Positions 36,701-64,000 of a stretch of DNA of 64,000 nt are shown here, piece by piece (within the stretch, counting starts at the first letter, position 1; the number at the start of each line of letters is the position of its first letter). Source of the DNA: an uncultured Chitinophagales bacterium (lineage in GTDB: Bacteria; Bacteroidota; Ignavibacteria; UBA10030; UBA6906). A program made the translations under genes and the position numbers. Under the pieces are notes generated by a model. It worked only from the letters and a program-made list of their open reading frames with translations. It was not told the origin of the DNA and ran no database searches. The stretch lies in contig CAZIHJ010000001.1 in assembly GCA_964538485.1 (NCBI GenBank), positions 13,899-77,898 of the forward strand. The letters run 5' to 3'.

Positions 36701-36951
36701 CAGAGGCAATCGACTTCGACCTGATGAATGAGAAACGCTTCCATCGACTCTTCAGAGAATTCCAATACAAAGACGAGGTGGTGCTGGAACCGGAAGTAAA
36801 TAAAAAAGTGGATCCACAGAGAATACCGATCAGAGAGAGAATCCACAGTTTTCAGGAGGTTTTGTCCGGATACTCCGGTGAAGAAGCAATGCAGGAAGCT
36901 CTCCGGTGCCTTCGCTGCGATGTCAAATGCCAGGAACACGAGGATAGCTAG
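33790..36951 (+). CDS. NuoF-like NAD(H)/FMN/[4Fe-4S] subunit fused to a C-terminal GltD/NfnB-like FAD/NAD(P)H oxidoreductase (1053 aa)
   Basis: N-terminal half has GRGGAGFPVGVKWE (the NuoF FMN/NADH motif), a SLBB domain, and the NuoF C-terminal cluster CGKCTPCREG. Residues ~610-1050 read IAIIGAGPAGLTAAYYL...VVVIGAGNVAIDAAR...VYAGGD, two Rossmann dinucleotide motifs typical of the glutamate-synthase small subunit or NfnB. Preceded by Cys clusters (CENSCPLHMNIPGY). Confidence 0.85.
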   Translation: MKIHDVTTLNDIRQKGLKKLFPDVPKISVGMGTCGLGNGAQDVLKRLQDVIKEKKARIQLSSVGCFGFCAEETLVNCYIPGQPLVILHRVTPGDATNIVESLSRGLMPLRKALCKIEQWDFCTSKIEFGKGIGSVPVWNELPFFKGQKKIVLRDAGLINPEDIEEYIAVGGYSALFKALTHMTPEMVLDEIKKSKLRGRGGAGFPVGVKWEMMKSAQADKKYIICNADEGDPGAYMNRNEIESDPHALLEGMLIGAYVMGTSEGVMYVRAEYPLAVQRFTKAMAAAREYGILGQNILGSSFNFQISHVEGAGAFVCGEETALIASIEGRAGRPIPRPPYPAQKGLWGKPTNINNVETWINIPVIVTIGGNEFAKFGTQTSTGTKVFSLVGKIKNTGLVELPLGTLLQDIIYQMGEGTGNRKRIRAVQTGGPSGGCIPVEHFNTPVDYESLTKLGTIMGSGGMVVMDQDNCMVDVARYFVEVTYNESCGKCTPCREGLAQSLAILNKITRGEATMHDLDTLERLSYVIRDSSLCGLGQTSSNPVLSTLRYFRDEYERHIIQRRCKAGVCENLFVALCENSCPLHMNIPGYLQLLKEVRLEEAFELTLRDNPLPGTVGRICYFHCQVRCRRDMVDDPVSQGEIHRYLADTMYKMGKEKEIYQRLIKEKLSPTQKNIAIIGAGPAGLTAAYYLVRLGHNVTVYDSHAKAGGILQYGIPAYRLPKDVLNKELELFRKLGVTFIFNTHIGKEISLKALQKQNDAVFLAVGAQKDIELDIEGKDLDGVLQGYEFLEHLGAGEKLQIGQKVVVIGAGNVAIDAARSCVRLGADVTIVYRRDRDEVPANEHEVKDAIDENIRFMFMSAPHRIIGDAKGRVKGLEIRKMKFDGFDNTGRKKPVDTGESDIIECTRVIVAIGEKVDFEPAKEVGLELRKNGTVKVHPPAYRTNLPKVYAGGDAVTGPATVAEAMGIARQASEAIDFDLMNEKRFHRLFREFQYKDEVVLEPEVNKKVDPQRIPIRERIHSFQEVLSGYSGEEAMQEALRCLRCDVKCQEHEDS

Positions 36952-36960
36952 AGGACACAA

Positions 36961-50550: not shown

Positions 50551-51120
50551 TTACGAAAAGGGATTTCTATTGTGCTTTGCTTGTTCCAGGAGACTGGAGC
50601 AATAGGCACAAAAGCTATGACTTTTCATATCGAGTTCTTCCACATACGACGCTGCATGCATGACGCATGAATGCTGTGAGCAGTGCACGAGGCCCAGCGA
50701 GTGTCCGAGCTCATGAGTTGCTACTTTTTGCAAACGTTCCCGGACAAGGAGTGTATTTGACGGAAGTCCGTACAGCTCATTGCGGAATCGGTGATATGAT
50801 ACAACGGCAACATTCCCGCCCAGCGGGGCCTCGCCGAACACATATGTGAGTATGGGTATATACAAGTCATACCCTGTCACTCCGACGAGTTGCACCCCAT
50901 TGTCTGCGTGCCGCGGTTTTGCGCTGTTGAGTTGAGCCAGGAAATGCAGAATAGCGGTAGAATTGTATTGCCCCCGCTGCACGTCGTAGAAACGATCAAT
51001 GGCAAAGCGGTCCGGACAAATTCTTACCGGGACGCCGAACGTTTCGTGCAACGTCGAGTCCAAACCATCAAATACACCGGGGTCAACCTCTGCCAGCGGT
51101 TGTACCTCAATTGCCGTCAT
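50551..51120 (-). CDS. Archaemetzincin-family zinc metallopeptidase
   Basis: HELGHSLGLVHC (HExxHxxGxxH) followed by Cys-rich CSQHSCVMH...CAYC, characteristic of AmzA. Confidence 0.75.
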   Translation of the reverse strand: MTAIEVQPLAEVDPGVFDGLDSTLHETFGVPVRICPDRFAIDRFYDVQRGQYNSTAILHFLAQLNSAKPRHADNGVQLVGVTGYDLYIPILTYVFGEAPLGGNVAVVSYHRFRNELYGLPSNTLLVRERLQKVATHELGHSLGLVHCSQHSCVMHAASYVEELDMKSHSFCAYCSSLLEQAKHNRNPFS

Positions 51121-52459
51121 TGCGCTTTAAACCGTACTTCTGAATCTTGTGATAGAGCGTTACCCGGTCAATGTCAAGAATTGTGGCTGCGCGGCTTACA
51201 TTCCATCCTGTTTCGGCGAGAACCTCTTTGATATACTTGTGCTCCACATCTTCAAGTGTCTTCCTGCCATTGATTCCGACTACAGATGTTCTCAATGGAA
51301 GATGGTCCTTTTCAATTGTCGATCCGACACTCACCACAACAGCACGCTCGATTGCATTCTCCAACTCACGCACATTTCCCGGCCATTCATACCCCTTTAG
51401 TTCGAGCATGGCTTCACGCGAAAACCCCTCGATCCTCTTGTTCATGGCACGCGAATATTTATCAAGGAAATGATGGGCGAGTTTTGCAATATCTCCCTTC
51501 CGGCTACGGAGGGGAGGGATATGAATTGGAAAGACATTCACACGGTAAAAGAGATCTTCCCGGAACGTCCCGTCCTTAACCGCTTGCTCAAGGTCTTTGT
51601 TCGTTGCACAAATCACCCTGAAATCCGACGTGAGCACATCGCTTCCACCGACTCGTGTGAACTGCTTTGTCTCAATGACGCGGAGCAAGTCCATTTGCGT
51701 CTTTGGGTCAATGTTGCCGATTTCATCAAGGAACAATGTCCCTCCGTCGGCCATCTCGACTTTTCCCTTCCTCCGGTACTGCGCACCTGTAAATGCCCCC
51801 TTTTCGTGGCCGAAGAGTTCACTCTCCAGCAATGTCTCAGTCATCGCGCCACAGTTTACCGTGACGAGAGAAAAGAACTTTCGTTGACTGGCATTGTGAA
51901 TGGCCCGTGCTACCAGCTCCTTGCCTGTGCCGCTCTCACCGCGAATCATGACCGTGGTGTCCGCGACGGCAACGGTCTTCACAAGTTTCAAAACGTTGAG
52001 AATTTCAGGCGATTCTCCCACAATCTCATCCCCGCTGGTGAGTTCGCTGACTGCATCTTTCAACCTCTGATTTTCCTTCAGCAGTTCCTGTTCCTTGAGG
52101 ATCTTCTCCACCAGATGATCAAGGTAATCGGGGTCAATGGGTTTGGTGATGTAGTCGTACGCACCATCCTTGAGGGATTTCACGGCGGTATCCACCGCAG
52201 CAAACGCCGTGATAATGATAACGGCGATATGTTTGTTGGTCTCCTTTACACGATGCAACAGCTCGATCCCATCCATACCAGGCATCCGGATGTCGACAAA
52301 CATGATATTCCAACGATTCAATTGCAGTTTTCTTAGTGCGGCTGCGGCATTCTCCGCCACGTCAACACGGTACCCCTCTTCGGCAAACCACTTTGATAGT
52401 GATTCCCTCACAATCAACTCATCGTCCACGACGAGAATCCCGATCTCATTGTTGTTCAT
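51107..52459 (-). CDS. Sigma-54-dependent response regulator (NtrC family)
   Basis: REC (ILVVDDE...DIRMPGMDG), GESGTGKE, GAFTGA, and a Fis-type HTH at the C-terminus. Confidence 0.9.
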   Translation of the reverse strand: MNNNEIGILVVDDELIVRESLSKWFAEEGYRVDVAENAAAALRKLQLNRWNIMFVDIRMPGMDGIELLHRVKETNKHIAVIIITAFAAVDTAVKSLKDGAYDYITKPIDPDYLDHLVEKILKEQELLKENQRLKDAVSELTSGDEIVGESPEILNVLKLVKTVAVADTTVMIRGESGTGKELVARAIHNASQRKFFSLVTVNCGAMTETLLESELFGHEKGAFTGAQYRRKGKVEMADGGTLFLDEIGNIDPKTQMDLLRVIETKQFTRVGGSDVLTSDFRVICATNKDLEQAVKDGTFREDLFYRVNVFPIHIPPLRSRKGDIAKLAHHFLDKYSRAMNKRIEGFSREAMLELKGYEWPGNVRELENAIERAVVVSVGSTIEKDHLPLRTSVVGINGRKTLEDVEHKYIKEVLAETGWNVSRAATILDIDRVTLYHKIQKYGLKRNDGN

Positions 52460-54110
52460 AATCCATTTCCTTTCTTATTCCGGAAGTGTCCGGTTGCGAT
52501 GCATCCACTTCTTGCTTTACCGGAAACGTCAAGGTGAATGTAGTTCCTGCTCCCGGCCTGGAGTCCACGAGGATGGTCCCGTGGTGGTGCTGAACGATCC
52601 CATACACGACCGCCAGACCCAGACCAACACCCTTGCCTTCAGATTTTGTTGTGAAGAATGGCTCAAAAACGTGCGCCTTCACATCGTTGCTCATTCCGCA
52701 TCCTGTATCACTTACGCGAAGGATGACCTTTTCGGGTTGCTGCTGTTGCACCTCGATCTTCAGCGTTCCACCTGAAGCTCCGGGGGAGTCCATTGCTTCG
52801 ATTGCATTCGACATCAAGGCGATAAGCGCCTGTTGCAGTTGATTGGAATCTCCATCCATTACGACATCGTCTGCACGCGACACGATCACATCGATTCCAT
52901 GCATCCGGGCGTGGTGGCTCATGAGCATAACGCATCGATCCACAACCGTGTTCAAGGAAAGAGCGCCAAATGATCCGCCCCGATGTCGCGCAAAGACGAG
53001 CAGGTTCTTCACGATATTGCCACAACGGAGCGATTCATCTGCGATGAGTTTCAGTTCATCATGCATTTGCAGAAGTTCTTTTTCCGTGAGGGTGTTTCGT
53101 TTCACCCTCTTCATCAACAGTCTTGCAAATGTCAGAATGCCTTCAAGCGGGTTATTAAGTTCATGGGCAACAGTCGCCGCAAGGTTTCCTAACGATGCCA
53201 TTTTCTCCACTGTCACCATATGCCTGTGCGCCCGCTCCAGGTCCGCAGTTTTCTCTTCAACCTTCTGCTCGAGAGTTCGGGACCATTCTGTGAGTTCTTC
53301 CCGCGCCGCGGCGAGGTCATCCGTCATCCGGTTGAACGTTACAGCGAGCGTCCCGAGCTCATCACGCGATGTTGCTTCGAGTTTCTGATCCAGTTGGCCG
53401 GACGATACCAACTGCATTCCAGTCATCAATCGTTTAACAGGCCGGTTGATGACCATCCAAATGAAGCCCCCCGAAATCAAGGAGATCAACAGCACGGCGG
53501 CAAACGAAAGGAGGAGGAGCTGGTTTCTGCTTTGTTGCAGATGGACGTCCACCTGTGCAAGTGACATTTTTACGTCCAGCACCCCGAGGATGGTTTTCGA
53601 TTCCGGGTGTGCATGACACGCGGCGTCTGAACATTGCTGTTCATTCCTGATCGGAGTGATGAGTCCGAGAACGCGATCACCGTTCGGTTTGCTGAACACA
53701 CGGGTGAGCTGAGCAGGTGTTTGGGAGACGCTATCGAGATGCGAAGACGAATGACAGCTCACACACGCCTCGGCGTTCACGTCAACCTGGGTGTGCGTTT
53801 CATCCGGAATGGATCCGAAGATCACTTCACCCTGTTTGTTGTAAATGCGGATTCCCTCGAGTCCCGGCTCACCCCCGACCGAAGTGATGATGCTGCGAAC
53901 ATCATCTTTTTGATTGAGCAACATGCTGTGGCGCGTGGAGCGGGCGATGAGATCGCTGACGCGCGTCGCACTCATGATCACATTTTCCATAATGTGAGAC
54001 TGCTGGATGTGGACCGCGGCGAAGGTCAACGCAAACAGTATGATCGTCTGTACAGAGACGATCAACAAAAAGAGTCTGAACGCGATTGTCCTTGTGAGTT
54101 TCATAACCAT
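52446..54110 (-). CDS. Sensor histidine kinase with periplasmic sensor domain containing CXXCH motif(s), HAMP, HisKA, HATPase
   Basis: TM1 (residues ~8-33), a ~155-aa periplasmic domain containing ACVSCHSS (CXXCH) and CSDAACHAH, TM2, HAMP, an H-box HELNNPLEGI, and G-boxes DTGCGM and GVGLGL. Confidence 0.85.
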   Translation of the reverse strand: MVMKLTRTIAFRLFLLIVSVQTIILFALTFAAVHIQQSHIMENVIMSATRVSDLIARSTRHSMLLNQKDDVRSIITSVGGEPGLEGIRIYNKQGEVIFGSIPDETHTQVDVNAEACVSCHSSSHLDSVSQTPAQLTRVFSKPNGDRVLGLITPIRNEQQCSDAACHAHPESKTILGVLDVKMSLAQVDVHLQQSRNQLLLLSFAAVLLISLISGGFIWMVINRPVKRLMTGMQLVSSGQLDQKLEATSRDELGTLAVTFNRMTDDLAAAREELTEWSRTLEQKVEEKTADLERAHRHMVTVEKMASLGNLAATVAHELNNPLEGILTFARLLMKRVKRNTLTEKELLQMHDELKLIADESLRCGNIVKNLLVFARHRGGSFGALSLNTVVDRCVMLMSHHARMHGIDVIVSRADDVVMDGDSNQLQQALIALMSNAIEAMDSPGASGGTLKIEVQQQQPEKVILRVSDTGCGMSNDVKAHVFEPFFTTKSEGKGVGLGLAVVYGIVQHHHGTILVDSRPGAGTTFTLTFPVKQEVDASQPDTSGIRKEMDYEQQ

Positions 54111-54281: not shown

Positions 54282-55502
54282 TCATCCCCGTGAATCTGCG
54301 GGGACAAAACCCGCTCCGGCACCCGGGAGCTCCACTGCCTCTGAAACGTGGTCAGCACCCGCCACATGGCCGTGTTCGACCTCTTTCCCGAACACATCGA
54401 AGTACCGGGCAACAAATGAGAACGCAACGAATCCAAACGCGGCGAGAGCTATGGTGATGGCAAGTTCCTGCCATGAAGGAATATATGTCCGCGTTTGCCA
54501 CTGCTCCATGCTGGTGATGGCGGTATTCAATCTGTGGGCGACGAACCCAAGCAACACAAGAACGGAGGAATAGAACAGCCCGGTTTTACTCGTCCGGACT
54601 TTCTTGAACAGGAGCAGAGCGAAAGGAACCAGCACTCCCAATACGACTTCGCCAATGAACATCATGCTCTGGTACGTTGGTTCAAACACGTATTGTAATG
54701 CATCCCGATTCACCAGATCCTGAATTCGTACAGTGAAGTACAGAGCAAGCACGACTACCACGACTTTCGCCAACTGGGAGAGCAATGGCAGTTCTATTTC
54801 TCTCCCGAAGGCTCGCGCTGAAAGGAAGGATTCGAAGATCGTCATGCACAACCCTGCCGCAACGCACGAGATGATGAAGAGAAACGGAATGACGTTGGAA
54901 TACCAGAGCGGGTGCATTCTGCCTGGGATGATAAGGAACAGTGACCCGAGGGAAGACTGGTGGAGAGTAGAAAGAAGCACACCCGCAACGACCAATGGAA
55001 TAGTGATTGCCTTGACGACCTTCAACGCTCGCTTGAGCCGGAAACGCTCAAGAATCACGGGGCTAAACTCCAACGCGAGCACCGTGGTGTACAGCATCAC
55101 GCACCAGGCAACTTCGAACATCACCGATCTTGGGTTCCAATAAATGAGTGCGTGCCAGATGGCCCACGGACGCCCGAGATCAACCATCAGGCCTGCAATG
55201 ACAAGCAGATATCCGAGAAACGCTGTAAGAATGGTTGGTCGGAGAATTGGTCTGAACCGCTCAATGTTGAAGATATACACTGCCGCCGCGATCGTGAATC
55301 CGCCTGCTGCGAGTCCGACCCCAACCAGAATATCGAACCCGATCCATAATCCCCACGGAAATGTATCTGCGAGATTAGTTGTGGCCCCGAGGCCGAGAGT
55401 GAAGCGCTGGATCGTCGCCACAAGTCCGGCCACCATCAACGCCACGGCAACTACTTTCCAAAAAGTTATCTTAAGAAGTCCAGGAAATTTCATGATCATC
55501 AC
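54282..55502 (-). CDS. NrfD/PsrC-family polytopic membrane quinol-interacting subunit
   Basis: Roughly 10 TM helices with the NrfD-like pattern (GLWIGFDILVGVGLAAGG...). Start codon overlaps the stop of the upstream NrfC-like gene. Confidence 0.8.
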   Translation of the reverse strand: MMIMKFPGLLKITFWKVVAVALMVAGLVATIQRFTLGLGATTNLADTFPWGLWIGFDILVGVGLAAGGFTIAAAVYIFNIERFRPILRPTILTAFLGYLLVIAGLMVDLGRPWAIWHALIYWNPRSVMFEVAWCVMLYTTVLALEFSPVILERFRLKRALKVVKAITIPLVVAGVLLSTLHQSSLGSLFLIIPGRMHPLWYSNVIPFLFIISCVAAGLCMTIFESFLSARAFGREIELPLLSQLAKVVVVVLALYFTVRIQDLVNRDALQYVFEPTYQSMMFIGEVVLGVLVPFALLLFKKVRTSKTGLFYSSVLVLLGFVAHRLNTAITSMEQWQTRTYIPSWQELAITIALAAFGFVAFSFVARYFDVFGKEVEHGHVAGADHVSEAVELPGAGAGFVPADSRG

Positions 55503-56281
55503 CTTGTGTTAGTATTTGCTTGATCGTCTTTTTTGCGCAACTCCTCGGCTTCGAACCTCGCTACTTCTGTTCGACGTGCGGTGATCCAATGAATGCCGAA
55601 GAGTACCACGCTCGCTGCAACCGTGTACTTCGGAATTTGTGAGAGCACGCGCCACGAGAGATTGGGAATCGGCTCATTTGGAATGTTCATCGGGAAACCG
55701 AGCTTCTCAAACGGTATGGCAGAGATGTACAGGACGGAAGTTCCCCCGGCCTCTTTCAGTCCATAGATGTAGTTCACATACTGTCCGGGATTCTCGTCGA
55801 TGCGTTTTCTTGCTTCCGTGATCATCTCATCCCGATCACCGAAGGTTGTCGCTCCGAACTGGCACGCTTCAGCGCATGCTGTTGGCTGACCTGCAGTCAC
55901 GCGCTCATAGCACATCTTGCACTTCTGGACTCTTGGCGCAAGACTGCTCCATTCATAGCGTGGGATCTCAAATGGACATGCCTGCATACAGTACCGGCAT
56001 CCGATGCACTTCGACTCATCGTAGACAACGGCACCGGTTTCTGTCTTAGTGAACGCTCCCACGAGACAGGCAGAAACACACGTCGGCTCGTTACAGTGCA
56101 TACACAGTTTGCGCACATGGACTTCGTCATTCTGGAAGCTTTTCAACACGGTGTATCGGGTTGAGGAGAGCTCCTGCCCATCCTCCTGGGGAAGACCGTT
56201 TGTTTCTGCGCAGGCACGTGTGCATTCGCCACACCCCACACACTTGGTGATATCGATAAGCAACGCTTTTGACGTACTCAT
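55499..56281 (-). CDS. NrfC/PsrB/HybA-like 4x[4Fe-4S] ferredoxin subunit with C-terminal TM anchor
   Basis: CVGCGECTRAC, CMHCNEPTCVSAC, CIGCRYCMQACP and CKMC...C clusters, plus a C-terminal hydrophobic helix. Confidence 0.85.
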   Translation of the reverse strand: MSTSKALLIDITKCVGCGECTRACAETNGLPQEDGQELSSTRYTVLKSFQNDEVHVRKLCMHCNEPTCVSACLVGAFTKTETGAVVYDESKCIGCRYCMQACPFEIPRYEWSSLAPRVQKCKMCYERVTAGQPTACAEACQFGATTFGDRDEMITEARKRIDENPGQYVNYIYGLKEAGGTSVLYISAIPFEKLGFPMNIPNEPIPNLSWRVLSQIPKYTVAASVVLFGIHWITARRTEVARFEAEELRKKDDQANTNTR

Positions 56282-56991
56282 TGGCCGATCTCCTTGTGAT
56301 CAGACTCTTGTGCTTTGCGTAAGGTCGTGAACGTGTGACCGAAATCCTCCCAGATGCGATCGTCAAGCTGCTGGAGAACGCCGTCGACCGGCAACCCGCC
56401 CTCCTGTAAGGTCACCGGCTGTCCCTCCATCTCATTCATCGCAATAAAGTCCCGCACCAATACCACTTGTTCCCGCAACCATTCCATCGGTTGGCGGATA
56501 ATGTATTGTCGTGATGCTGCAATATCATCTACCCTTGATTTCAAACGGACAAGCCATCCCTTTCCATACGGATCAGTCATTATGAGCGAAGGGTCTCTCA
56601 GAACATCAGGGTTCGGCTCGACAACTCCACCGGCAACAGGTGTTGCCAGCCGGAATGATCGGCCGTTCGCACCCATTGAAAAATCAGCAAAAGAGGGTCT
56701 CGTCGTCTCTCCAGCGGGTGGGACGGCGATTGTTTCAACTACTCCCATCAGCCGGCTGAGAAACCCGTCAATCCCCAGCGTAATTGTCCCATCGTGGTTG
56801 GTCCGCATCCACATATGGTTGGTAGCGAGTTCGACATCCTGCGGGAGGTGACTCGGGAGTTGGAAAGGCCGTGGCCGCGATGTCGCCTGGAATGGCTTTC
56901 GCACCGCGACAGGCCGGCTACGTTTTTTTTGAACAACGTGGTCGATTGCCAGGAAAGTAATCAGTGTGCACAGCACGAGTAAGACAGTCAT
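56278..56991 (-). CDS. Membrane-anchored glycine-cleavage H-protein-like (GcvH-fold) protein lacking the lipoyl-lysine
   Basis: N-terminal TM helix, then NHMWMRTNHDGTITLGIDGFLSRLMGVVETIAVP...PYGKGWLVRLK. This parallels GcvH (KEHEWL...GITEHAQ...VFVDLP...ESVKA...SEPYAGGWIFKIK) but no Lys sits at the lipoylation position. GGAGG RBS. Confidence 0.6.
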   Translation of the reverse strand: MTVLLVLCTLITFLAIDHVVQKKRSRPVAVRKPFQATSRPRPFQLPSHLPQDVELATNHMWMRTNHDGTITLGIDGFLSRLMGVVETIAVPPAGETTRPSFADFSMGANGRSFRLATPVAGGVVEPNPDVLRDPSLIMTDPYGKGWLVRLKSRVDDIAASRQYIIRQPMEWLREQVVLVRDFIAMNEMEGQPVTLQEGGLPVDGVLQQLDDRIWEDFGHTFTTLRKAQESDHKEIGQ

Positions 56992-57003
56992 GGTAGTTCT
57001 CCT

Positions 57004-57657
57004 CTATGATTTCAATTTCTTTTCCGTGACTAACGAACCGTCACGCACATCGACATGGAAAAACTGGCGAGCGATGCTCGACCACTCTTCGTCCGAGCAC
57101 TTGTCAGCGAGATTCTGCAACAGAACACCACCCTCCTGGAACATCAATGCGGGTGTTCTCGAAAAGAACCTGAGAAGTTCAGCGCGTTCCATATCCTGCC
57201 ATTTGATAGCCGCCCTTCCAGTGAAGAGATTGTTCAATTGGAAGTTGAGTTTGGTTGGCCGCACTTTGAGCAGCCATCCATCACCATAGGGGGAGCTATT
57301 GACAAGTGCAGGGTTGTTCTTCACCATTTCATTTTTTTCGATTACCCAACCGGTCACCGGACTTCTCATGGGCACCACTCGATTACCATGCCGTACGACC
57401 CATCCAACCTCCCCCTGGCGTACGCGACGAAGCAACCGTGGGAGCCTCAACTCATCAACGGCCCCGATGACTGATTGCCCGAAATCATCGATCCCGATAA
57501 CAACATCTCCATCCCGGGTCTGTCTCATCCATGTATGACCCGGATGCATGTAGCGTTTCACCATCACAGGTTCAGGATGGGCTTCAGGTTTTTCTTTTGC
57601 CATCATTCGGATGAGAATGATGACCGTCGCAGTGATTATTGCAAGTATAAGCGACAT
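57004..57657 (-). CDS. Membrane-anchored GcvH-like protein, paralog of the downstream gene, lacking lipoyl-lysine
   Basis: Trimmed to the ATG at 57657, which has an AGGAGG RBS. TM helix, then YMHPGHTWMRQTRDGDVVIGIDDFGQSVIGAVDELRLP...RHGNRVVPMRSPVTGWVIEKN...NSSPYGDGWLLKVRP, which aligns with GcvH position by position. The lipoyl-Lys is replaced by RHGNR. Confidence 0.6.
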   Translation of the reverse strand: MSLILAIITATVIILIRMMAKEKPEAHPEPVMVKRYMHPGHTWMRQTRDGDVVIGIDDFGQSVIGAVDELRLPRLLRRVRQGEVGWVVRHGNRVVPMRSPVTGWVIEKNEMVKNNPALVNSSPYGDGWLLKVRPTKLNFQLNNLFTGRAAIKWQDMERAELLRFFSRTPALMFQEGGVLLQNLADKCSDEEWSSIARQFFHVDVRDGSLVTEKKLKS

Positions 57658-58038
57658 GGCAACCTCCTTTGGGTTTCTGTTCACCTCTGTCGAAGAGTAA
57701 TAGTCCCAAGAAGTTTGCCAGATCACTCACGGGTTTTCAGCGGTGTAAACTCGTGCGACACAATAGGTTGAAACCTGTTGCAAAAACGAACATGTGATGA
57801 GATGAAACAAGAAGTTGAATAACACAACAGCGCCTTCGGCTGAGAGTCGGGATTTTAGCTGGATCTGGTTGTTATCAATGGAGTTGGAAGTGTGTTGAAA
57901 ATTGAAGCGAGAATGTGTAAGTAATCATCACTTCCAGACTGGAGAGTCGCTGATGCGGGAACAAAGTCAAGCCACGCTCATGTTGCCCCACCGGACGGAC
58001 TTTACACCTCCGAAAGTAACTGTTGAGGTTTTCAATAC

Positions 58039-58052
58039 TGGCATCCAATTCG
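58039..58052 (+). promoter_or_regulatory. Possible sigma-54 -24/-12 element (TGGCATccaatTCGC) upstream of the cytochrome operon
   Basis: GG-N10-GC spacing; TGGCA matches the -24 box; -12 reads TCGC instead of TTGC. Lies ~140 nt upstream of the ATG at 58192. Weak. Confidence 0.25.
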
Positions 58053-58191
58053 CCCCTTATTTCTCACAACTGAGAACCTCCACCCATGATTGAGATGCAA
58101 TTTCAGCGTTTTCATTGCTTTCTACCTCGGCATGTGCTTTGAATCTATGAAGGGTGTTGATTTGACAATACAACGGTTGATCTATCAGGTG

Positions 58192-60330
58192 ATGAAAACC
58201 TTTACACTCATACTGACACTTGTCTTCTCTTCGAATGTTGGACCGGATCTTCTGGCCCAGGACAACAATCAGTGTTTGACCTGTCATGGCGAGCATGCCC
58301 TTTCTATGGAGAAGAGGGGAAAGTCAATTTCCCTTTTTGTGAATCCGCCCGCATTCCAGAAGTCAGCACACGGTGATCTCGAATGCGTTGGATGTCACGA
58401 AGGACTTTCTGGCGACGAGATTCCGCATGCAAAGAAGATCAATGCGGTTGACTGCATGAGCTGCCACGACAGCCAGGGGCTTACCCACTACAAGGAGAGC
58501 GTCCACGCACTGAAGAAGGCGAATGGATCTACTGCGGCTACCTGTGCGGACTGTCATTCAAAGCACGCGATTCAGAGAATCTCTGAAAAGGATCCACATG
58601 CAAGGCAAGAATTTGGTATTGGGGTCTGCGCGACGTGTCACGGTGATCTGAAAAACAAGTTCATGGCTTCGGACCATGGTAAGGCCTTCAAGGCCGGCAC
58701 AAAAGGGGCTCCGGCTTGCATAGACTGTCATGGCGAACACGGGGTCCAGTCCGCGATGAATGACTCTTCGACCACAAACCACAAGCAAGTTGCGGCAATG
58801 TGCTTGAATTGTCATCTGGACAATCCCGACGTACGCGCGAAAGTCGGGCCGTCTGCCGGGTTTGTGTCGAGCTACGAGCAAAGCGTTCATGGCCAGGCTG
58901 TGCAACATGGGAATGATATGGCTGCAACGTGTACTGACTGCCACAGCAGTCATGAGATGCGAAAGGGTTCCGATCCCGTATCAAAGGTTGCAAAGAAAAA
59001 TATCGCATCCACATGCGGACAGTGTCACGGCGATGTTGAAGAGCAGTACAAGTACAGTGTCCACGGCAAAGCGGTTGCTGCCGGTATTGGGGCTTCAGCG
59101 ACGTGCACAGATTGCCATGGCGAGCACAACATTCTTTCTCCAAAAGACGACCGTTCACCCGTCTCTGCCAGGAACGTCTCTGTGCAGGTTTGCTCTCCCT
59201 GTCACGCATCGGTCAAACTCAACGAGAAGTACGGGCTCGCCAGTGACCGGTTCCAGAGCTTTGCCGATAGCTATCATGGGCTGGCAGGACGGGCGGGCGA
59301 TGTTGAGGTTGCCAATTGTGCCAGTTGCCATGGTGTTCACGACATCAAGCCTTCTTCGGATTCCACTTCAAGGATCCATCCAAAGAATCTTGTCAACACG
59401 TGTGGTTCATGTCATCCCGGGGCGAACGAGAATTTTGCCCAGGGTTCTGTGCACGTGATTGCGACGTCCGGCCAGGACAGGGTGCTGTATTTCGTTTCCA
59501 CCTCATACATTATCCTGATTATTGTGACGATTGGAGGGATGTTCTTCCACAATCTTCTCGACTTCATCAGGAAATCAAAAAGAAAACTCATGGAACGGCG
59601 CGGGTTGATCCATCACCGACCTGCGGAAAACCGGCTGTACCTGAGGATGTCATTAGGCGAGAGGATTCAGCACGGTACATTGCTCGTCAGTTTTACAACG
59701 CTTGTTCTTACAGGGTTTGCACTCAGGTTTCCGGATGCCTGGTGGGTAGCACCTGTGCGCGATATCAGTCCGATGATGTTTGAACTCCGAAGCCTCAGTC
59801 ACAGGATTGCCGGTGTTGTAATGGTACTCGTGAGTCTCTATCATGTCTACTATGTTCTTATTGTCCCGCGAGGCAAGCAACTCCTGCGCGATATGCTTCC
59901 CGAACGGAACGATCTTACGGATGTGATTGGCGTTTTGAAATACAATCTTGGGATGGCTGCCGTGAAACCGGGGTTCAAGCGCTTCAGCTACATTGAGAAA
60001 GCGGAGTATTGGGCGCTCATCTGGGGGACGTTCGTGATGGCCGCAACCGGATTTATCCTCTGGTTTGACAACACGTTTATAGGCCTCTTCACCAAGCTTG
60101 GATGGGACGTTGCACGGACCATTCATTACTACGAGGCCTGGCTAGCAACACTCGCAATCATCGTCTGGCATTTCTACTTCGTGATTTTCAACCCGGACAC
60201 GTATCCCCTCAACCTCGCTTTCTGGAAGGGAACGCTCACTGAGGAAGAAATGCGGGAAGAACATCCCCTGGAGTTGGATGAATTGAAGCGAGAGGAAGAA
60301 TCGGAAAAAGAAATAGGCGGGGAGAGTTAG
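58192..60330 (+). CDS. Multiheme cytochrome c (13 CXXCH) fused to C-terminal di-heme cytochrome b (FdnI/PhsC/HybB-like) membrane domain
   Basis: Trimmed to the ATG at 58192 (signal peptide MKTFTLILTLVFSSNVGPDLLAQ). Thirteen CXXCH motifs occur between residues 30 and 440. The C-terminal ~270 aa forms 4-5 TM helices with conserved His pairs (IQHGTLL...; SHRIAGVVMVLVSLYHVYYV; WHFYFVIFNP), typical of b-type cytochrome subunits of formate dehydrogenase or hydrogenase. Confidence 0.8.
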   Translation: MKTFTLILTLVFSSNVGPDLLAQDNNQCLTCHGEHALSMEKRGKSISLFVNPPAFQKSAHGDLECVGCHEGLSGDEIPHAKKINAVDCMSCHDSQGLTHYKESVHALKKANGSTAATCADCHSKHAIQRISEKDPHARQEFGIGVCATCHGDLKNKFMASDHGKAFKAGTKGAPACIDCHGEHGVQSAMNDSSTTNHKQVAAMCLNCHLDNPDVRAKVGPSAGFVSSYEQSVHGQAVQHGNDMAATCTDCHSSHEMRKGSDPVSKVAKKNIASTCGQCHGDVEEQYKYSVHGKAVAAGIGASATCTDCHGEHNILSPKDDRSPVSARNVSVQVCSPCHASVKLNEKYGLASDRFQSFADSYHGLAGRAGDVEVANCASCHGVHDIKPSSDSTSRIHPKNLVNTCGSCHPGANENFAQGSVHVIATSGQDRVLYFVSTSYIILIIVTIGGMFFHNLLDFIRKSKRKLMERRGLIHHRPAENRLYLRMSLGERIQHGTLLVSFTTLVLTGFALRFPDAWWVAPVRDISPMMFELRSLSHRIAGVVMVLVSLYHVYYVLIVPRGKQLLRDMLPERNDLTDVIGVLKYNLGMAAVKPGFKRFSYIEKAEYWALIWGTFVMAATGFILWFDNTFIGLFTKLGWDVARTIHYYEAWLATLAIIVWHFYFVIFNPDTYPLNLAFWKGTLTEEEMREEHPLELDELKREEESEKEIGGES

Positions 60331-60573: not shown

Positions 60574-61116
60574 ATGAGATCAACCATGCAGTTTATTGCA
60601 GTCATACTTGTTACTCTCGTCGTGGTAAGCGTAAGTGCTGCGGACAATAAGTTCACGGGCGCCAAGATGTGCGCCGCGTGCCACAAGGCAGGTAAAGGCG
60701 GAACTGCTTTTGCCGTTTGGGAGAAGAGCGCCCACGCACACGCATTTCAAACATTGCTCAGTGATGCCTCAAAGAAAATTGCAAAAGAAAAGGGTTTAAA
60801 GACGGCACCCAGTGAAAGTCCGGAGTGTTTGAAGTGTCATGTCACCGGCGGCGGTGCTGCGAAGAATATTGAGGCCTCGTTCAAGAAGGAAGAAGGCATC
60901 ACATGCGAAGCATGCCACGGGGCGGCATCCGGCTACAAGATGCTTCACAGCAAGGGTGATCTTGCAAAGTCAAAAGCGGCAGGAATGGATCCCGGGCAGA
61001 AAGATGCGAAATTCTGCGTTACCTGTCACAACGCTGAGAGTCCCTCACACAAATCAGCTTTCAAACTCGACGAGATGTGGTCGAAGATAGAACACCCACT
61101 GCCGGCAAAGAAATGA
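60574..61116 (+). CDS. Periplasmic tetraheme cytochrome c (c3-like)
   Basis: Signal peptide, then CAACH, CLKCH, CEACH and CVTCH in 180 aa. Confidence 0.8.
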   Translation: MRSTMQFIAVILVTLVVVSVSAADNKFTGAKMCAACHKAGKGGTAFAVWEKSAHAHAFQTLLSDASKKIAKEKGLKTAPSESPECLKCHVTGGGAAKNIEASFKKEEGITCEACHGAASGYKMLHSKGDLAKSKAAGMDPGQKDAKFCVTCHNAESPSHKSAFKLDEMWSKIEHPLPAKK

Positions 61117-61173: not shown

Positions 61174-62691
61174 GTGTTTACCACGGAGTCCCACTTGAAG
61201 CGCCGATTTCCGGATGTCATCTACAATCCCATCAGCATAGTAGGCGCAGCACTCGCAAGCGTCAGCTTTGCAACCATTCTCTTTCTAACGCTGGTCGATA
61301 TTATGCAGGAGCACCCCCCCGCATACATCGGCATTATCTCCTATGTTGTCCTTCCCATACCGTTGATCATCGGTCTGGCGCTCATCCCGATTGGCATTCT
61401 GCGCGAGAAATCCCGTTTACGCAAGGGATTGCCCGCCAGCCGGATGTCATTTAGTATTGATCTGAACATTCCAAGGCAACGGACTGCGGTGACGCTCTTC
61501 GCAGGTGCAACCGTTATTTTCCTGTTATTCACGGCGTACGGAAGTTACAGGACATTTGAATGGACGGAATCAGTCGAGTTCTGCGGTGAAACTTGTCACT
61601 CAGTGATGGAACCGGAATTCACTGCATACTTGAATTCTCCTCATGCGCGGGTAAAGTGTGTGGATTGTCATGTCGGATCCGGAGCGGATTGGTACCTCAA
61701 GTCGAAGCTCAGTGGTGCGTACCAGGTGTATGCTGTTCTGGTGGATAATTATCCCCGTCCGATCCCGACGCCGATAGCGAACTTGCGTCCGGCGCAGGAA
61801 ACATGTGAACAGTGTCACTGGCCGTCTCACTTTGCAGGTGAGAAGAAGTATGTCAACACGTACTTCAAGTCCGACGAACAGAATACGCGTTGGACGATTG
61901 CCCTTTTGATGAAGACCGGTGGAGGAAGTGCCGATCGTACTCCGACGAGCGGTATTCACTGGCATATGAATATCGCCAATGAGATTACCTACGTCGCGAC
62001 GGACAGTCAGCGTCAGACGATTCCATGGGTGAAGGTTAGAAATCAATCAACGGGTGAGGAGACCGAATATCTCTCGTCGGATGCAACGGAGTCGATGGAC
62101 CATTTCAGGCAACTCCCATCCAACAGAGTAGACTGTATTGATTGTCACAACAGGCCGTCGCACATCTATCGTCCACCTGTCCGCATTGTGGATCAGAGCC
62201 TTGCACTCGGCAGAATCAGCACGGATCTTCCCAGTATTCGGGCAGCGTCCATTCAGGCGTTGACGGAACCCTACACGTCAACGAAAGCAGCGATGGACAG
62301 TATCCCGTTGTTGATGGCCGGATTTTACGCGGATCAGTATCCCGCTGTTGCGAATGAGAAGAAGGAGTTGATCAAGGCTGCTTCGGAAGAGCTTAAAACA
62401 CAATTCAGCCGGAACTTTTTCCCCGGGATGAAGGTCAACTGGAAGGCATATCCCAACAACATCGGACATATGACAGACATCGGCTGTTTTCGATGCCACG
62501 ATGGGAAGCACGTCAGCGCCACGGGCAAGACGATCTCAAAGGATTGCAATAGCTGTCATACGATTCTCTATCAGGGCAGCGATCCTGTTCCGACAACTAT
62601 GAGTATTGCTGGATTGGAATTCCAACACCCTGAAGACATTGGTGAGATCTGGAAGGAAATGAACTGCAAGGATTGTCACACCGGGCAGTGA
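61174..62691 (+). CDS. Membrane-anchored multiheme cytochrome c (7 CXXCH; NapC/NrfH-superfamily-like N-terminus with 2-3 TM helices)
   Basis: The open frame begins after a TGA at 61141; the first plausible start is GTG at 61174. Hydrophobic helices (ISIVGAALASVSFATILFLTLV; IGIISYVVLPIPLIIGLALIPIGIL; VTLFAGATVIFLLF) precede CGETCH, CVDCH, CEQCH, CIDCH, CFRCH, CNSCH and CKDCH. Confidence 0.75.
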   Translation: MFTTESHLKRRFPDVIYNPISIVGAALASVSFATILFLTLVDIMQEHPPAYIGIISYVVLPIPLIIGLALIPIGILREKSRLRKGLPASRMSFSIDLNIPRQRTAVTLFAGATVIFLLFTAYGSYRTFEWTESVEFCGETCHSVMEPEFTAYLNSPHARVKCVDCHVGSGADWYLKSKLSGAYQVYAVLVDNYPRPIPTPIANLRPAQETCEQCHWPSHFAGEKKYVNTYFKSDEQNTRWTIALLMKTGGGSADRTPTSGIHWHMNIANEITYVATDSQRQTIPWVKVRNQSTGEETEYLSSDATESMDHFRQLPSNRVDCIDCHNRPSHIYRPPVRIVDQSLALGRISTDLPSIRAASIQALTEPYTSTKAAMDSIPLLMAGFYADQYPAVANEKKELIKAASEELKTQFSRNFFPGMKVNWKAYPNNIGHMTDIGCFRCHDGKHVSATGKTISKDCNSCHTILYQGSDPVPTTMSIAGLEFQHPEDIGEIWKEMNCKDCHTGQ

Positions 62692-62885
62692 ATTAAGGAA
62701 TCTCCTGATTGCAGGTTTGATAAAAGGCAGGTGTTTCCCTTATGATTGTTGAGAATGAGCCGCATGACTGTCCGGGGAGTGTTGATTTAAGATGGATTTG
62801 GCTGATTCTCCTGGCGTTTCGTTGGCACACGGCTTGATAATATCGAGACAGCATTTTGATTATCCATCGAGAGCGAATCAAACCT

Positions 62886-64000
62886 ATGAACGCTGATACT
62901 GCATTCTCGAAGAGTTTCAAACACATTCTTCTTCTCCTTGCCCTTTCTTTTGGCTGTTCATCGCTTTCAATCGGGCAATTGGTCAACGGTCGTTTTATTA
63001 CATCGGTGTATTCCTGGAAGCAGTATGAAACCGTGGACGTGTCGAAGACATTTACTCGGGGATTTCAGTCCGTCCTCCTTGACGTTGCGCAGAACGATTT
63101 CAGCCTTCATGGCCACTTCCAGGGAGCGGTGATGCTGCAAAGCAAGCTCGATGAGCTTCCGGACTACCGGCTGTATTACGGTTATGCACAATGGAGGAAC
63201 ATCGCTGATGTCGCCGATCTCTCCTTTGGCAGGGTACCGTTCTTTGCCGGTGTGGGTTCGGGAACGATAGACGGCGCGCTGGCAAGATTCCGTGTTGCGG
63301 AGAATGCATGGCGGTTGACGTTCTACGGAGGCGCGAATACTCCTGCGGATATGACGGTGAAAAAATGGGGCCCTCTCAAGAACAACTTTACCATCGGCGG
63401 GCAGATTCTGACGACGGCTGTTGAAGACTGGCGCTTCGGTCTCAGTTACATGAACCGACAGCGTGAGAGTCCGGGCTACTGGACGCTTCGGTCCGACTCG
63501 CTGTTTACTCCATTCGCCCTCTACATTGATCCGAATCAGGCGAAGGAACAGTATGCAAGCGCCGATATCTCCTATTCCCTGAACAACATTAACCTTCGTG
63601 CTCTCTGCGATTACAACATCGACTATGAGAAGACCCAACGAGCACTTGTGAGTGCCCGCTACTATCCATCAGATGACTGGATTGTCAGTGCAGAGTACAT
63701 CCACCGGGCCCCCCGATTGATGTCGAATTCCTTCTTTGCGGTCTTCAATGCGCACACGATTGATGAGATAGAAGGTGGTGCGGATTACACGGTGTTACCT
63801 TCCGTTCGCGTGTTTGCCCGCGGAGCGTACGTGCAATATTCTGGCGATAATAGTTTTCGCTACACGGTGGGTGTAGCCAACGACTACGCTTCCGCCAGTT
63901 ACCGGGGAAGCACGGGATATGCCGGGGAACTACACTCCGTCTCATTGCAGGGATCGTATCCTCTGTGCGATCGGATGTTTATTCCGACTGCCGGTCTTTC
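62886..64000 (+). CDS. Probable outer-membrane beta-barrel protein, partial (continues past window end)
   Basis: Not in the ORF track because it has no stop within the window. ATG at 62886 gives MNADTAFSKSFKHILLLLALSFGCSSLSIGQ (signal peptide), followed by 340 aa of alternating-hydrophobicity, Tyr/Gly/Arg-rich sequence (YGYAQWRN..., TFYGGAN..., FGLSYMNRQ..., ADISYSLNN...) typical of a porin-like barrel. The opposite-strand ORF 62967..63638 is a shadow of this frame. Confidence 0.5.
   Translation, partial: MNADTAFSKSFKHILLLLALSFGCSSLSIGQLVNGRFITSVYSWKQYETVDVSKTFTRGFQSVLLDVAQNDFSLHGHFQGAVMLQSKLDELPDYRLYYGYAQWRNIADVADLSFGRVPFFAGVGSGTIDGALARFRVAENAWRLTFYGGANTPADMTVKKWGPLKNNFTIGGQILTTAVEDWRFGLSYMNRQRESPGYWTLRSDSLFTPFALYIDPNQAKEQYASADISYSLNNINLRALCDYNIDYEKTQRALVSARYYPSDDWIVSAEYIHRAPRLMSNSFFAVFNAHTIDEIEGGADYTVLPSVRVFARGAYVQYSGDNSFRYTVGVANDYASASYRGSTGYAGELHSVSLQGSYPLCDRMFIPTAGL

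Follow-up and report, generated by a model that had tools for sequence, protein, structure and literature searches.

The window, i.e., the whole stretch of 64,000 nucleotides that was analyzed, contains a cbcL-like gene as the first gene of a cluster that continues with genes for a c554-like cytochrome, an ImcH-like cytochrome and a porin-like protein (Table 1). A TTG upstream of the ATG, at position 58090, is an alternative start codon that would result in a product of 746 amino acids. A preliminary description of this DNA had regarded the cbcL-like product as one polypeptide in which a 13-haem cytochrome c is fused to a dihaem cytochrome b membrane domain, and had named a sequencing or assembly frameshift between two separate genes as what would speak against it. 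The reading frame is uninterrupted at the junction of the c domain and the b domain, and both domain types are present in one full-length polypeptide in all of the 120 best database homologues, which show identities of 63-92% and were drawn from several independent sources (NCBI, JGI, ENA and Logan assemblies); 109 of these 120 have 13 CXXCH motifs. No such error was found, and the gene is confirmed to encode a real single protein with thirteen c-type haems and a two-haem membrane cytochrome b, the haem binding being predicted from the sequence.

The c554-like tetrahaem protein is a candidate periplasmic electron acceptor or shuttle for the cbcL-like protein. Its gene directly follows the cbcL-like gene in the related loci L001 and L056 and lies elsewhere within the cluster in L054 and L055. 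The following gene product is assigned by its sequence to the ImcH family: it has three hydrophobic segments as N-terminal transmembrane (TM) helices, NapC/NirT-like sequence (Cytochrom_NNT, the NapC/NirT N-terminal region, E = 1.7e-12; NrfH-like, E = 5e-16), and one CX3CH motif (CGETCH) together with six CXXCH motifs, at positions 129/154/203/313/430/450/490 that match those of ImcH homologues from Ignavibacteria (Table S3 of PMC6295460). The porin-like protein gave no Pfam or NCBIfam match, and its β-barrel nature is suggested by gene position: its orthologue in L001 and similarly placed genes for proteins of about 435 amino acids without Pfam match in L054-L056 are located between the ImcH-like gene and multihaem cytochrome genes. 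The kinase/sigma-54 regulator pair possibly regulates the cluster; such a pair is also present immediately ahead of the cbcL-like gene in L055 and L056 and at a short distance from it in L001. In the region 57727-58191 the sigma-54 pattern TGGCAC-N5-TTGCW was unmatched with up to two mismatches allowed and no convincing -24/-12 element was seen; a weak GG-N10-GC element is located near 58039, upstream of the cbcL-like gene.

In the relatives the cluster extends into genes for outer multihaem lipoprotein cytochromes and CcmF, and Geobacter-like porin-cytochrome clusters have already been reported in Ignavibacteria (PMC7399161). The gene set of the window is fermentative and anaerobic, including an [FeFe] hydrogenase, a pyruvate:ferredoxin oxidoreductase and a fused malic enzyme-phosphotransacetylase. 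The content of the cluster, including the outer cytochromes and CcmF of the relatives, points to extracellular electron transfer, with the inner-membrane part of the pathway encoded in the window and the outer part on the contig of the closest relative. The uncultured Bacteroidota/Ignavibacteria-type organism is thus a likely metal- or electrode-respiring bacterium.

Table 1. Features of the cbcL-like gene and its cluster, in positions of the window.
Feature	Positions	Strand	Basis
HAMP histidine kinase and sigma-54-dependent response regulator	51107..54110	-	Pfam
cbcL-like gene, 712-aa fused multihaem-c/dihaem-b inner-membrane cytochrome (haem binding predicted)	58192..60330	+	single open reading frame, ATG 58192 to stop 60330
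Sec-type signal peptide, aa 1-23, putative cleavage between MKTFTLILTLVFSSNVGPDLLA and Q	58192..58260	+	read from the sequence
Predicted periplasmic 13-haem c-type domain, aa 24-425	58261..59466	+	CXXCH motifs, invariant His, Pfam
First copy (A) of the repeated tetrahaem module, with haems 6-9, aa 161-289	58672..59058	+	internal repeat, motif spacing
Second copy (B) of the repeated tetrahaem module, with haems 10-13, aa 290-425	59059..59466	+	internal repeat
Linker helix TM0, aa 430-459, predicted periplasm to cytoplasm	59479..59568	+	hydropathy, AlphaFold helix 429-469
Predicted dihaem cytochrome b domain of the FdnI/HydC type with four TM helices, aa 485-668	59644..60195	+	PF01292, FdnI alignment
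Cytochrome c554-like tetrahaem periplasmic cytochrome, 180 aa (predicted)	60574..61116	+	Pfam Cytochrome_C554, E = 9e-18
ImcH-type inner-membrane cytochrome, 498 aa (predicted)	61174..62691	+	NapC/NirT N-terminal region, NrfH-like
Porin-like protein with signal peptide, runs past the end of the window (putative)	62886..64000	+	translation; orthologue of full length 438 aa in L001

The 13-haem domain and the membrane domain

As described preliminarily, thirteen CXXCH motifs precede the membrane domain: there are exactly 13, at residues 28, 65, 88, 118, 146, 176, 204, 247, 275, 305, 334, 376 and 404, so that all of them (residues 28-408) are N-terminal to the TM region, and all 26 cysteines of the protein sit inside these motifs. 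In 20,000 composition-preserving shuffles of the sequence CXXCH occurred with a mean of 0.056 and a maximum of 2. The dipeptide AQ a little ahead of the first motif is common to the homologues in their consensus. Across 29 homologues the 13 motifs are invariant, as are exactly 13 further histidines (60, 79, 105, 125, 162, 183, 233, 254, 291, 312, 362, 383 and 421), which implies that every haem is bis-His ligated. The domain is matched by the Pfam families Cytochrom_c3_2, Cytochrome_C7 and Paired_CXXCH_1. Among solved structures the c domain had only marginal matches, to NrfB and to 28pb, a 278-aa cytochrome c that carries no name, with E about 1e-3, and none of them qualifies as its structural homologue.

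The last eight haems are arranged in two copies of a tetrahaem module, A and B, which share 35% identity (E = 2e-25). The motif spacing in copy A (28/43/28) is that of the last four haems of CbcL, and the nine haems of CbcL can be aligned in two registers, either with haems 1-9 or with haems 5-13 of the window protein. Because of this internal repeat and the dual register, the four extra haems can be attributed to a 9-haem CbcL-like ancestor in which the last tetrahaem module was duplicated in tandem, an origin that as part of the overall interpretation is considered probable. The haem number in the CbcL/MtrH/MtoC family would thus change through duplication of tetrahaem modules, which is useful for understanding the evolution of multihaem wires, although it is not a new principle.

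For the C-terminal part a domain of about 270 amino acids with four to five TM helices and the His pairs of b haems had been proposed, and both the helices and the histidines were recovered. Five hydrophobic helices were found (430-459, 495-513, 538-560, 607-625 and 647-668), which correspond to the AlphaFold helices 429-469, 488-512, 528-557, 600-628 and 637-666, and the positive-inside rule is obeyed, with 11 (the loop after TM0) and 8 lysines plus arginines in the putative cytoplasmic loops vs. 2 and 2 in the periplasmic ones. The Pfam family Ni_hydr_CYTB (PF01292) matches residues 485-667 with E = 4.3e-15 and 56.4 bits, above its cut-off of 30.1. The histidines H494, H537, H645 and H660 align to H18, H57, H155 and H169 of FdnI (1kqf_C) and are the predicted haem b ligands; a failure of this alignment had been named as an argument against a dihaem b domain. 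All four are kept in 79 of 79 diverse family members, including the Geobacter CbcLs. The structure 1kqf_C is the best PDB match by sequence and the sole significant one by Foldseek (E = 4.7e-5, TM(target) 0.74). The AlphaFold2 model of the full protein, built with 29 close homologues, is of low confidence (mean pLDDT 65.5, pTM 0.48); it is adequate for helix boundaries and the match to the FdnI fold, not for haem-to-haem geometry. The HQNO-site residues N110-K114 of FdnI align to S599-K603 of the window protein, a partly conserved stretch in which K603 is invariant and E602 is present in 67 of 79 sequences. The protein ends in an acidic tail of 44 amino acids without hydrophobic segment, and with five TM helices and no C-terminal helix its C-terminus is predicted to be cytoplasmic.

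The conserved H453 in TM0, which aligns to H307 of CbcL, and H551 in TM2 were considered as ligands of a third b haem, as both are invariant among the close homologues. This was rejected: each of the two is missing in 8 of the 79 diverse members but they are never lost in the same sequence, and they therefore do not form a ligand pair.

Relationship to the CbcL/MtrH/MtoC family

In BLASTP the window protein aligns with CbcL from Geobacter hydrogenophilus (L004:4699-6552, 618 aa) with 31% identity over 578 amino acids (E = 2e-68), collinear across both domains. The comparator CbcL set was authenticated by the orthologue of Geobacter sp. OR-1, fetched in the same genome scan, whose length and CXXCH positions equal those in Table S2 of PMC6295460, allowing for a one-residue offset of the table. 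The CbcL alignment in the supplement of PMC9129911 was garbled in its machine-read form, and its fragments served only as bait for the genome scan, which led to genuine Geobacteraceae loci; they are not used as evidence. The likeness to Geobacter CbcL and the higher number of haems (13 vs. 9) that had been described initially are thus correct, but the domain order is not inverted as had been thought, since Geobacter CbcL likewise carries its c-type haems N-terminally and its b domain C-terminally.

CbcL homologues with 3-23 haems are distributed over 15 phyla including Bacteroidetes and Ignavibacteriae (PMC6295460). The 150 best b-domain cluster representatives do not include a Geobacter CbcL and are all closer relatives of the window protein; in 101 of these 150 all CXXCH motifs are N-terminal to the b domain. 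With the family published and this arrangement prevalent among the representatives, the fused c/b organization is not unusual. Like the family, the window protein joins an N-terminal multihaem c domain with a predicted export signal and a membrane domain in one chain, the latter being a C-terminal HydC/FdnI-like dihaem b domain with conserved His ligands, and it shows significant collinear full-length homology to an authenticated CbcL. It has five TM helices instead of the six of G. sulfurreducens CbcL and of most catalogued homologues, which is compatible with membership in the wider family because the published catalogue admits 4-TM and 5-TM members. Judged by sequence, it is very probably a Bacteroidota/Ignavibacteria-type member of the CbcL/MtrH/MtoC inner-membrane bc-cytochromes. 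CbcL sensu stricto, as found in Desulfuromonadales, has nine CXXCH motifs and a length of about 615-620 amino acids, and its orthologues share about 57% identity or more; with 13 motifs, 712 amino acids and 31% identity the window protein is, by these measures, a paralogous or distant family member and not a CbcL orthologue. It also lies outside the NapC/NirT/NrfH/CymA group (35 bits vs. 310.6 for TIGR02161), to which its organization is opposite: these proteins begin with one TM anchor and continue with a tetrahaem domain, while here the haems come first and the five-TM b domain second. Homologues carry the labels "cytochrome b subunit of formate dehydrogenase" and "cytochrome b/b6 domain-containing protein"; for them the present results support the name CbcL-type quinol oxidases.

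Proposed electron transfer and alternative explanations

The preliminary suggestion of a quinol-to-periplasmic-haem-wire oxidoreductase is plausible by analogy, and the function considered most likely, with good confidence, is oxidation of menaquinol at the cytoplasmic face with electron transfer via two b haems to a 13-haem periplasmic wire. The Sec signal peptide would export the N-terminal domain to the periplasm, where the 13 bis-His c-type haems would be attached. The linker helix is predicted from sequence, topology rules and fold to bring the chain back to the cytoplasm, followed by the four-helix FdnI-type bundle, in which the conserved H494/H660 would ligate a cytoplasm-side haem b and H537/H645 a periplasm-side haem b. 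In analogy to FdnI and to what was proposed for CbcL, menaquinol would be oxidized near the cytoplasm-side haem with release of the protons to the cytoplasm; for CbcL such a cytoplasmic-side proton release was put forward (bioRxiv 10.1101/2022.08.31.506072; 10.1101/2023.05.03.539133). From the two b haems, over which they would cross the membrane, the electrons would enter the 13-haem chain. The conserved gene context suggests that they would then go to the adjacent c554-like protein or other periplasmic cytochromes and on to the porin-cytochrome conduit encoded downstream.

The same architecture could operate in the opposite direction, as a quinone reductase that would feed the menaquinone pool with electrons arriving over the periplasmic or outer-membrane cytochrome chain, their source being Fe(II), a cathode or a syntrophic partner, as was proposed for the MtoC-type relatives (PMC6295460). 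Homologues of CbcL/MtrH/MtoC occur in Fe(III) reducers as well as in Fe(II) oxidizers and the direction has no sequence marker (PMC6295460), and with a cytoplasm-side quinone site inward electron flow would generate proton-motive force, as in formate dehydrogenase-N. However, the cluster contains an ImcH homologue, and ImcH-family proteins are to date known only from Fe(III) reducers (PMC6295460); the fermentative, anaerobic gene set of the window fits the need for an electron sink, and MtoA/MtoB-type genes are absent, so that this reading is regarded as rather unlikely. A much smaller probability is given to a function as membrane anchor (γ subunit) of a formate dehydrogenase or hydrogenase fed by a periplasmic catalytic subunit, which the names of homologues at JGI ("cytochrome b subunit of formate dehydrogenase") and matches to the NCBIfam models of the formate dehydrogenase γ subunit (E = 1.6e-12) and the Ni/Fe-hydrogenase b-type subunit (E = 5.9e-8) would suggest. 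These matches are far below the cut-offs (47.9 vs. 115.9 bits for TIGR01583 and 32.5 vs. 121.5 for the Ni/Fe-hydrogenase b-type subunit), as is that to the FdnI/FdoI equivalogs (NF007558, 25.4 vs. 339). Neither the window nor four relatives have flanking FdnG/FdnH or periplasmic hydrogenase genes, the neighbourhood has no molybdopterin genes, and the fused multihaem domain replaces a separate electron-input subunit.

That the multihaem domain is instead a quinol-driven catalytic periplasmic reductase, e.g., for nitrite, sulfite or selenite, is hinted at by weak NrfB- and NrfA-like matches, but none of the catalytic-family matches comes anywhere near its cut-off. As a candidate distal His is conserved for every haem (13 for 13) and a CXXCK or other atypical motif is absent, no haem would be open to substrate, and this function is extremely improbable. 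Equally little weight is given to an artefact, with two distinct genes, for a multihaem cytochrome and a cytochrome b, run together by a frameshift or an error of assembly. Unfused pairs do exist, consisting in L054 and L055 of a multihaem gene (671 aa) and, after it, a Ni_hydr_CYTB gene (283-298 aa), but the open frame at the junction and the conservation of the fusion in independent assemblies already refute this explanation; in addition, the linker helix TM0 is required by the topology and conserved including H453, and Geobacter CbcL is a fused protein that was studied experimentally (PMC9129911).

Taking the protein as a menaquinol oxidase, a wider and more tentative reading is that in this lineage a single cluster, possibly controlled by sigma-54, encodes all that electrons need to get from the quinone pool to the cell surface, with CbcL-type and ImcH-type menaquinol oxidases side by side. 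The CbcL-type enzyme would have its quinone site on the cytoplasmic side so that no energy is conserved, and the ImcH-type enzyme would have a periplasm-side site; this joint reading, though conceivable, is held to be doubtful. If both oxidases were co-expressed, a high- or a low-yield branch would be chosen at the protein level by redox potential. Under the same reading the duplicated module, with 13 haems here and as many as 19-23 in relatives, could extend the wire toward the outer-membrane conduit so that fewer soluble shuttles would be needed.

Comparison with known systems

The closest characterized counterpart discussed here is CbcL (GSU0274) from Geobacter sulfurreducens with its orthologues in Desulfuromonadales. 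Both proteins are single chains that start with a multihaem c domain destined for Sec export, pass through a linker TM helix and carry a dihaem b domain of the FdnI/HydC type in the C-terminal part, and they share the four b-haem ligands, the TM0 histidine, the terminal tetrahaem module with its 28/43/28 spacing and c-type haems that are apparently all bis-His ligated, as measured for the periplasmic domain of CbcL (PMC9129911). CbcL differs in having nine haems, the window protein reaching 13 via the duplicated module, and in possessing a sixth, C-terminal TM helix, and the window protein originates from a Bacteroidota/Ignavibacteria lineage. Its gene has ImcH-type and putative porin-cytochrome genes as neighbours in the cluster, whereas imcH was reported to be non-adjacent to mtrAB/mtoAB (PMC6295460). 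With an identity of only about 31%, the potential gating of CbcL cannot be assumed for the window protein.

MtrH and MtoC from Rhodoferax ferrireducens, Dechloromonas aromatica and Gallionella capsiferriformans have the same two-domain architecture; an mtrAB/mtoAB neighbourhood is absent here. The catalogue of Zhong and Shi (2018; PMC6295460) already contains members from Bacteroidetes, Ignavibacteriae and Caldithrix, and the spacings of the first five CXXCH motifs (37/23/30/28) are those of its 19-haem and 23-haem forms. Its Table S2 has proteins with 3, 8-12, 19-20 and 23 haems, and a 13-haem entry was not seen there; the catalogued Bacteroidetes/Ignavibacteria entries are 19-haem, 6-TM proteins, in contrast to the 13 haems and five TM helices found here.

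FdnI, the cytochrome b556 γ subunit of E. coli formate dehydrogenase-N (1kqf chain C), resembles the membrane domain in its four-helix bundle, the aligned His ligands and the predicted cytoplasmic location of both domain termini, at a sequence identity of about 17%. In the dehydrogenase, FdnI is a subunit of its own, reducing menaquinone with electrons supplied by FdnGH, whereas the b domain of the window protein forms one chain with a periplasmic haem wire and probably works the other way round. CbcBA from G. sulfurreducens likewise combines a multihaem cytochrome c with an FdnI-type dihaem cytochrome b as menaquinol oxidase (bioRxiv 10.1101/2021.04.15.440034; 10.1101/2023.05.03.539133). In L054 and L055 the unfused pair comes immediately after the fused gene, so that the bc unit can occur in its fused and its split form side by side, which is useful for studying the evolution of such wires, though not a new principle. 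CbcBA and these unfused pairs consist of two separate polypeptides, while the window protein unites both functions in one.

Architecture of the fused cytochrome

Sequence, topology and fold show that the product of the cbcL-like gene combines an exported domain with 13 bis-His haems, a helix acting as linker, and an FdnI-type bundle of four helices in which both His pairs are present. The preliminary description had reported 13 CXXCH motifs followed by a C-terminal b domain with several transmembrane (TM) helices, and this was confirmed: the motifs start at aa 28, 65, 88, 118, 146, 176, 204, 247, 275, 305, 334, 376 and 404 and contain all 26 Cys residues (composition-matched shuffles yield a mean of 0.056 and a maximum of 2 motifs), and five hydrophobic helices (aa 430-459, 495-513, 538-560, 607-625 and 647-668) all lie C-terminal to the last motif. 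The same five helices were recovered in the AlphaFold secondary structure, and the distribution of charge over the loops agrees with the positive-inside rule if the N-terminus is periplasmic and the C-terminus cytoplasmic. The N-terminus resembles a Sec-type signal peptide in sequence; translation from an alternative upstream start, the TTG at 58090, would lengthen the product to 746 aa.

The gene had been described as encoding a single polypeptide, and this holds. In a homologue search over 5.8 billion proteins 7,861 of 8,000 candidates scored E<=1e-5, and the best 120 of these 7,861 all possess both the multihaem and the PF01292 domain, which excludes a frameshift or misassembly as the source of the fusion. 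These 120 homologues (about 675-775 aa, 63-92% identity, at least 90% query coverage) originate from NCBI, JGI, ENA and Logan assemblies, the named ones being Bacteroidota or Ignavibacteriae MAGs; 13 CXXCH are present in 109 and 12 in 11 of them. In an alignment of 29 homologues drawn from this set all 13 motifs are invariant, and so, within the periplasmic part, are exactly 13 further His residues, implying bis-His ligation of every c-haem.

The b domain matches Ni_hydr_CYTB (PF01292) in Pfam at aa 485-667 with E=4.3e-15, above the gathering score. In sequence, E. coli FdnI (1kqf_C) is the closest solved structure, and FdnI was also the sole significant Foldseek match of the model (E=4.7e-5, TM 0.74 on the target). 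As had been proposed, the His pairs correspond to FdnI-type haem-b ligands: H494, H537, H645 and H660 align with FdnI H18, H57, H155 and H169, and they are kept in all 79 sequences of a family alignment composed of 74 diverse cluster representatives, four CbcLs from Desulfuromonadales and the query itself. In the structure of formate dehydrogenase-N, the cytoplasm-side haem is ligated by H18/H169 and the periplasm-side haem by H57/H155. Two additional conserved His, H453 in the linker helix, aligned with CbcL H307, and H551 in TM2, are substituted in 8/79 sequences each but never both in one sequence, and a third haem site formed by them was therefore ruled out.

Membership of the CbcL/MtrH/MtoC family

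CbcL of Geobacter sulfurreducens (GSU0274, 619 aa) carries nine CXXCH within the N-terminal half, and its C-terminal half contains six TM helices with similarity to HydC/FdnI-type dihaem cytochromes b (PMC6295460; PMC9129911; bioRxiv 10.1101/2023.05.03.539133). Kinship with CbcL had been suspected, with an inverted domain order; the kinship was borne out, and since the haems of CbcL are N-terminal and its b domain C-terminal, the order is the same and not inverted. For comparison, fragments of a garbled paper-supplement alignment were used as bait in a scan of species-representative genomes, yielding 52 loci, predominantly of Geobacteraceae and Desulfuromonadales. The matching ORFs (G. hydrogenophilus, Geobacter sp. 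OR-1 and others) have 609-619 aa and nine CXXCH, and that of Geobacter sp. OR-1 (618 aa) agrees in length and motif positions with Table S2 of PMC6295460, the table being offset by one residue. BLASTP against G. hydrogenophilus CbcL gave 31% identity over 578 aa (E=2e-68), collinear from the haem domain through the linker helix to the end of the b domain. This collinearity and the four invariant ligand His residues place the protein, as judged from sequence, in the CbcL/MtrH/MtoC family sensu Zhong and Shi (PMC6295460).

The arrangement, earlier regarded as unusual, is that of a known and widespread family with 3-23 haem motifs and 416-1034 aa in 15 phyla, the catalogue of which holds five Bacteroidetes and two Ignavibacteriae entries (PMC6295460). 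With the b domain alone as query, 2,153 clusters (50% identity) were found with E<=1e-3, of which 429 reached E<=1e-30; among the best 150, all CXXCH are N-terminal to the b domain in 101, and 47 without any CXXCH are fragments or stand-alone b subunits. The two exceptions are P0245, with a mixed order, and P0259 (615 aa), in which an N-terminal FdnI-type b domain (aa 7-228, 38% identity to the one studied here) precedes 16 CXXCH. A truly inverted architecture is thus real but rare, and it is not that of the CbcL-like protein, which is a newly found member, of a 13-haem, five-TM subtype, of an already known and widespread family.

The gene cluster and its surroundings

Features of the cbcL-like gene cluster within the window
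Feature	Position	Strand	Remarks
cbcL-like gene	58192-60330	+	uninterrupted single ORF, 712 aa from ATG
Cytochrome c554-like tetrahaem protein	60574-61116		downstream of the cbcL-like gene
ImcH-type inner-membrane cytochrome	61174-62691	+	three TM helices, one CX3CH (CGETCH), six CXXCH
Signal-peptide protein	from 62886 past window end (64000)	+	continues as L001:14665-15981, 438 aa

The ImcH-type gene is the second gene downstream of the cbcL-like gene, and its motif positions equal those tabulated for Ignavibacteria ImcH homologues. The pairing recurs at four loci of relatives (L001, the closest, L054, L055 and L056); both Geobacter-type menaquinol oxidase families occur in one cluster, and their co-location with the remainder of the conduit is of modest interest. 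The 438-aa signal-peptide protein matched no Pfam or NCBIfam family; its gene keeps its place between the ImcH-like gene and those of multihaem cytochromes, a position that makes it probable that the protein serves as outer-membrane porin in a porin-cytochrome complex. Just upstream of this gene, at 62823-62838, is a sigma-54 -24/-12 element close to consensus, TGGCACACGGCTTGAT, with one mismatch. In L001 (92% identical) the cluster extends over the 438-aa protein, a 12-haem cytochrome, two 5-haem proteins, with N-termini resembling lipoprotein signal sequences by eye, and CcmF. Three relatives at greater distance (65-74% identity) share this core and have a sigma-54 two-component system close by; in two relatives a Rieske/cytochrome b unit is added. 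In its layout the cluster matches a porin-cytochrome locus for extracellular electron transfer, of a kind already reported in Ignavibacteria (PMC7399161).

The Rieske/cytochrome b insert (L054:16852-19867, L056:14503-17515) encodes a Rieske protein, a bc1/b6f-type cytochrome b and a ~495-aa multihaem cytochrome; it represents a third kind of quinol oxidase module at the conduit locus and is absent from the cluster part within the window. At L054:12186-15097 and L055:12159-15006 the fused gene is directly followed by an unfused pair, a multihaem cytochrome of 671 aa and a Ni_hydr_CYTB protein of 283-298 aa, and therefore fused and split versions of one bc unit stand side by side in these relatives, which is also of modest interest.

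Two membrane-anchored proteins resembling GcvH (237 and 240 aa) are encoded by a divergent operon (54282-57726, minus strand) that is conserved in L001, together with an HmcB/HybA-like 4Fe-4S protein in which no Tat signal is obvious and a membrane protein of the NrfD family that resembles HmcC/HybB (E about 1e-94 to HmcC, below the cut-off). Such a combination of lipoyl-carrier-like proteins and a quinone-interacting module is unusual. Elsewhere the window holds an anaerobic, fermentative gene set, including an [FeFe] hydrogenase with a NuoF-like partner, pyruvate:ferredoxin oxidoreductase and a fused malic enzyme-phosphotransacetylase, which is compatible with extracellular acceptors serving as electron sink. 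At 33790-38790 (plus strand) a NuoF-like FMN/NADH module fused to a pyridine nucleotide-disulphide oxidoreductase (1053 aa in all) adjoins the hydrogenase large subunit; this system is probably a hydrogenase that bifurcates electrons or is linked to NAD(P)H.

Electron flow and comparison with CbcL

By analogy with FdnI, the two b haems would span the membrane, with a quinone site near the cytoplasm-side haem: S599-K603 align with FdnI N110-K114, presumably the HQNO-site residues, K603 being invariant and E602 present in 67/79 sequences. The function proposed earlier, a quinol-to-periplasmic haem-wire oxidoreductase, appears to be right, although the direction cannot be read from sequence. The protein might instead reduce quinone, as proposed for MtoC-type relatives (PMC6295460); however, because the cluster contains ImcH, a family recorded to date in Fe(III) reducers alone, outward electron flow is favoured. 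With outward flow from such a site, menaquinol oxidation would release protons into the cytoplasm and pass electrons toward the periplasm, so this step would not build proton-motive force. The same non-conserving step was proposed for CbcL, to account for a growth yield below that of ImcH (bioRxiv 10.1101/2022.08.31.506072; 10.1101/2023.05.03.539133).

The protein differs from CbcL in having five instead of six TM helices; among the sequences compared, all four Desulfuromonadales CbcLs have a hydrophobic helix at the C-terminus and none of the remaining 75 does. It also has 13 haems, whereas CbcL has nine. No 13-haem entry was found in the 2018 Table S2 (PMC6295460); among the 150 nearest b-domain cluster representatives forms with 1-19 motifs occur, 11 being the commonest count, and seven clusters have 13. 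The haem domain contains a tandem repeat (aa 161-289 and 290-425, 35% identity, E=2e-25), each copy with four haems spaced 28/43/28, which is also the spacing of the last four haems of CbcL. The nine CbcL haems fit in two registers, on haems 1-9 or on haems 5-13, so the 13 haems correspond to the nine of CbcL plus one duplicated tetrahaem module, a duplication of modest interest.
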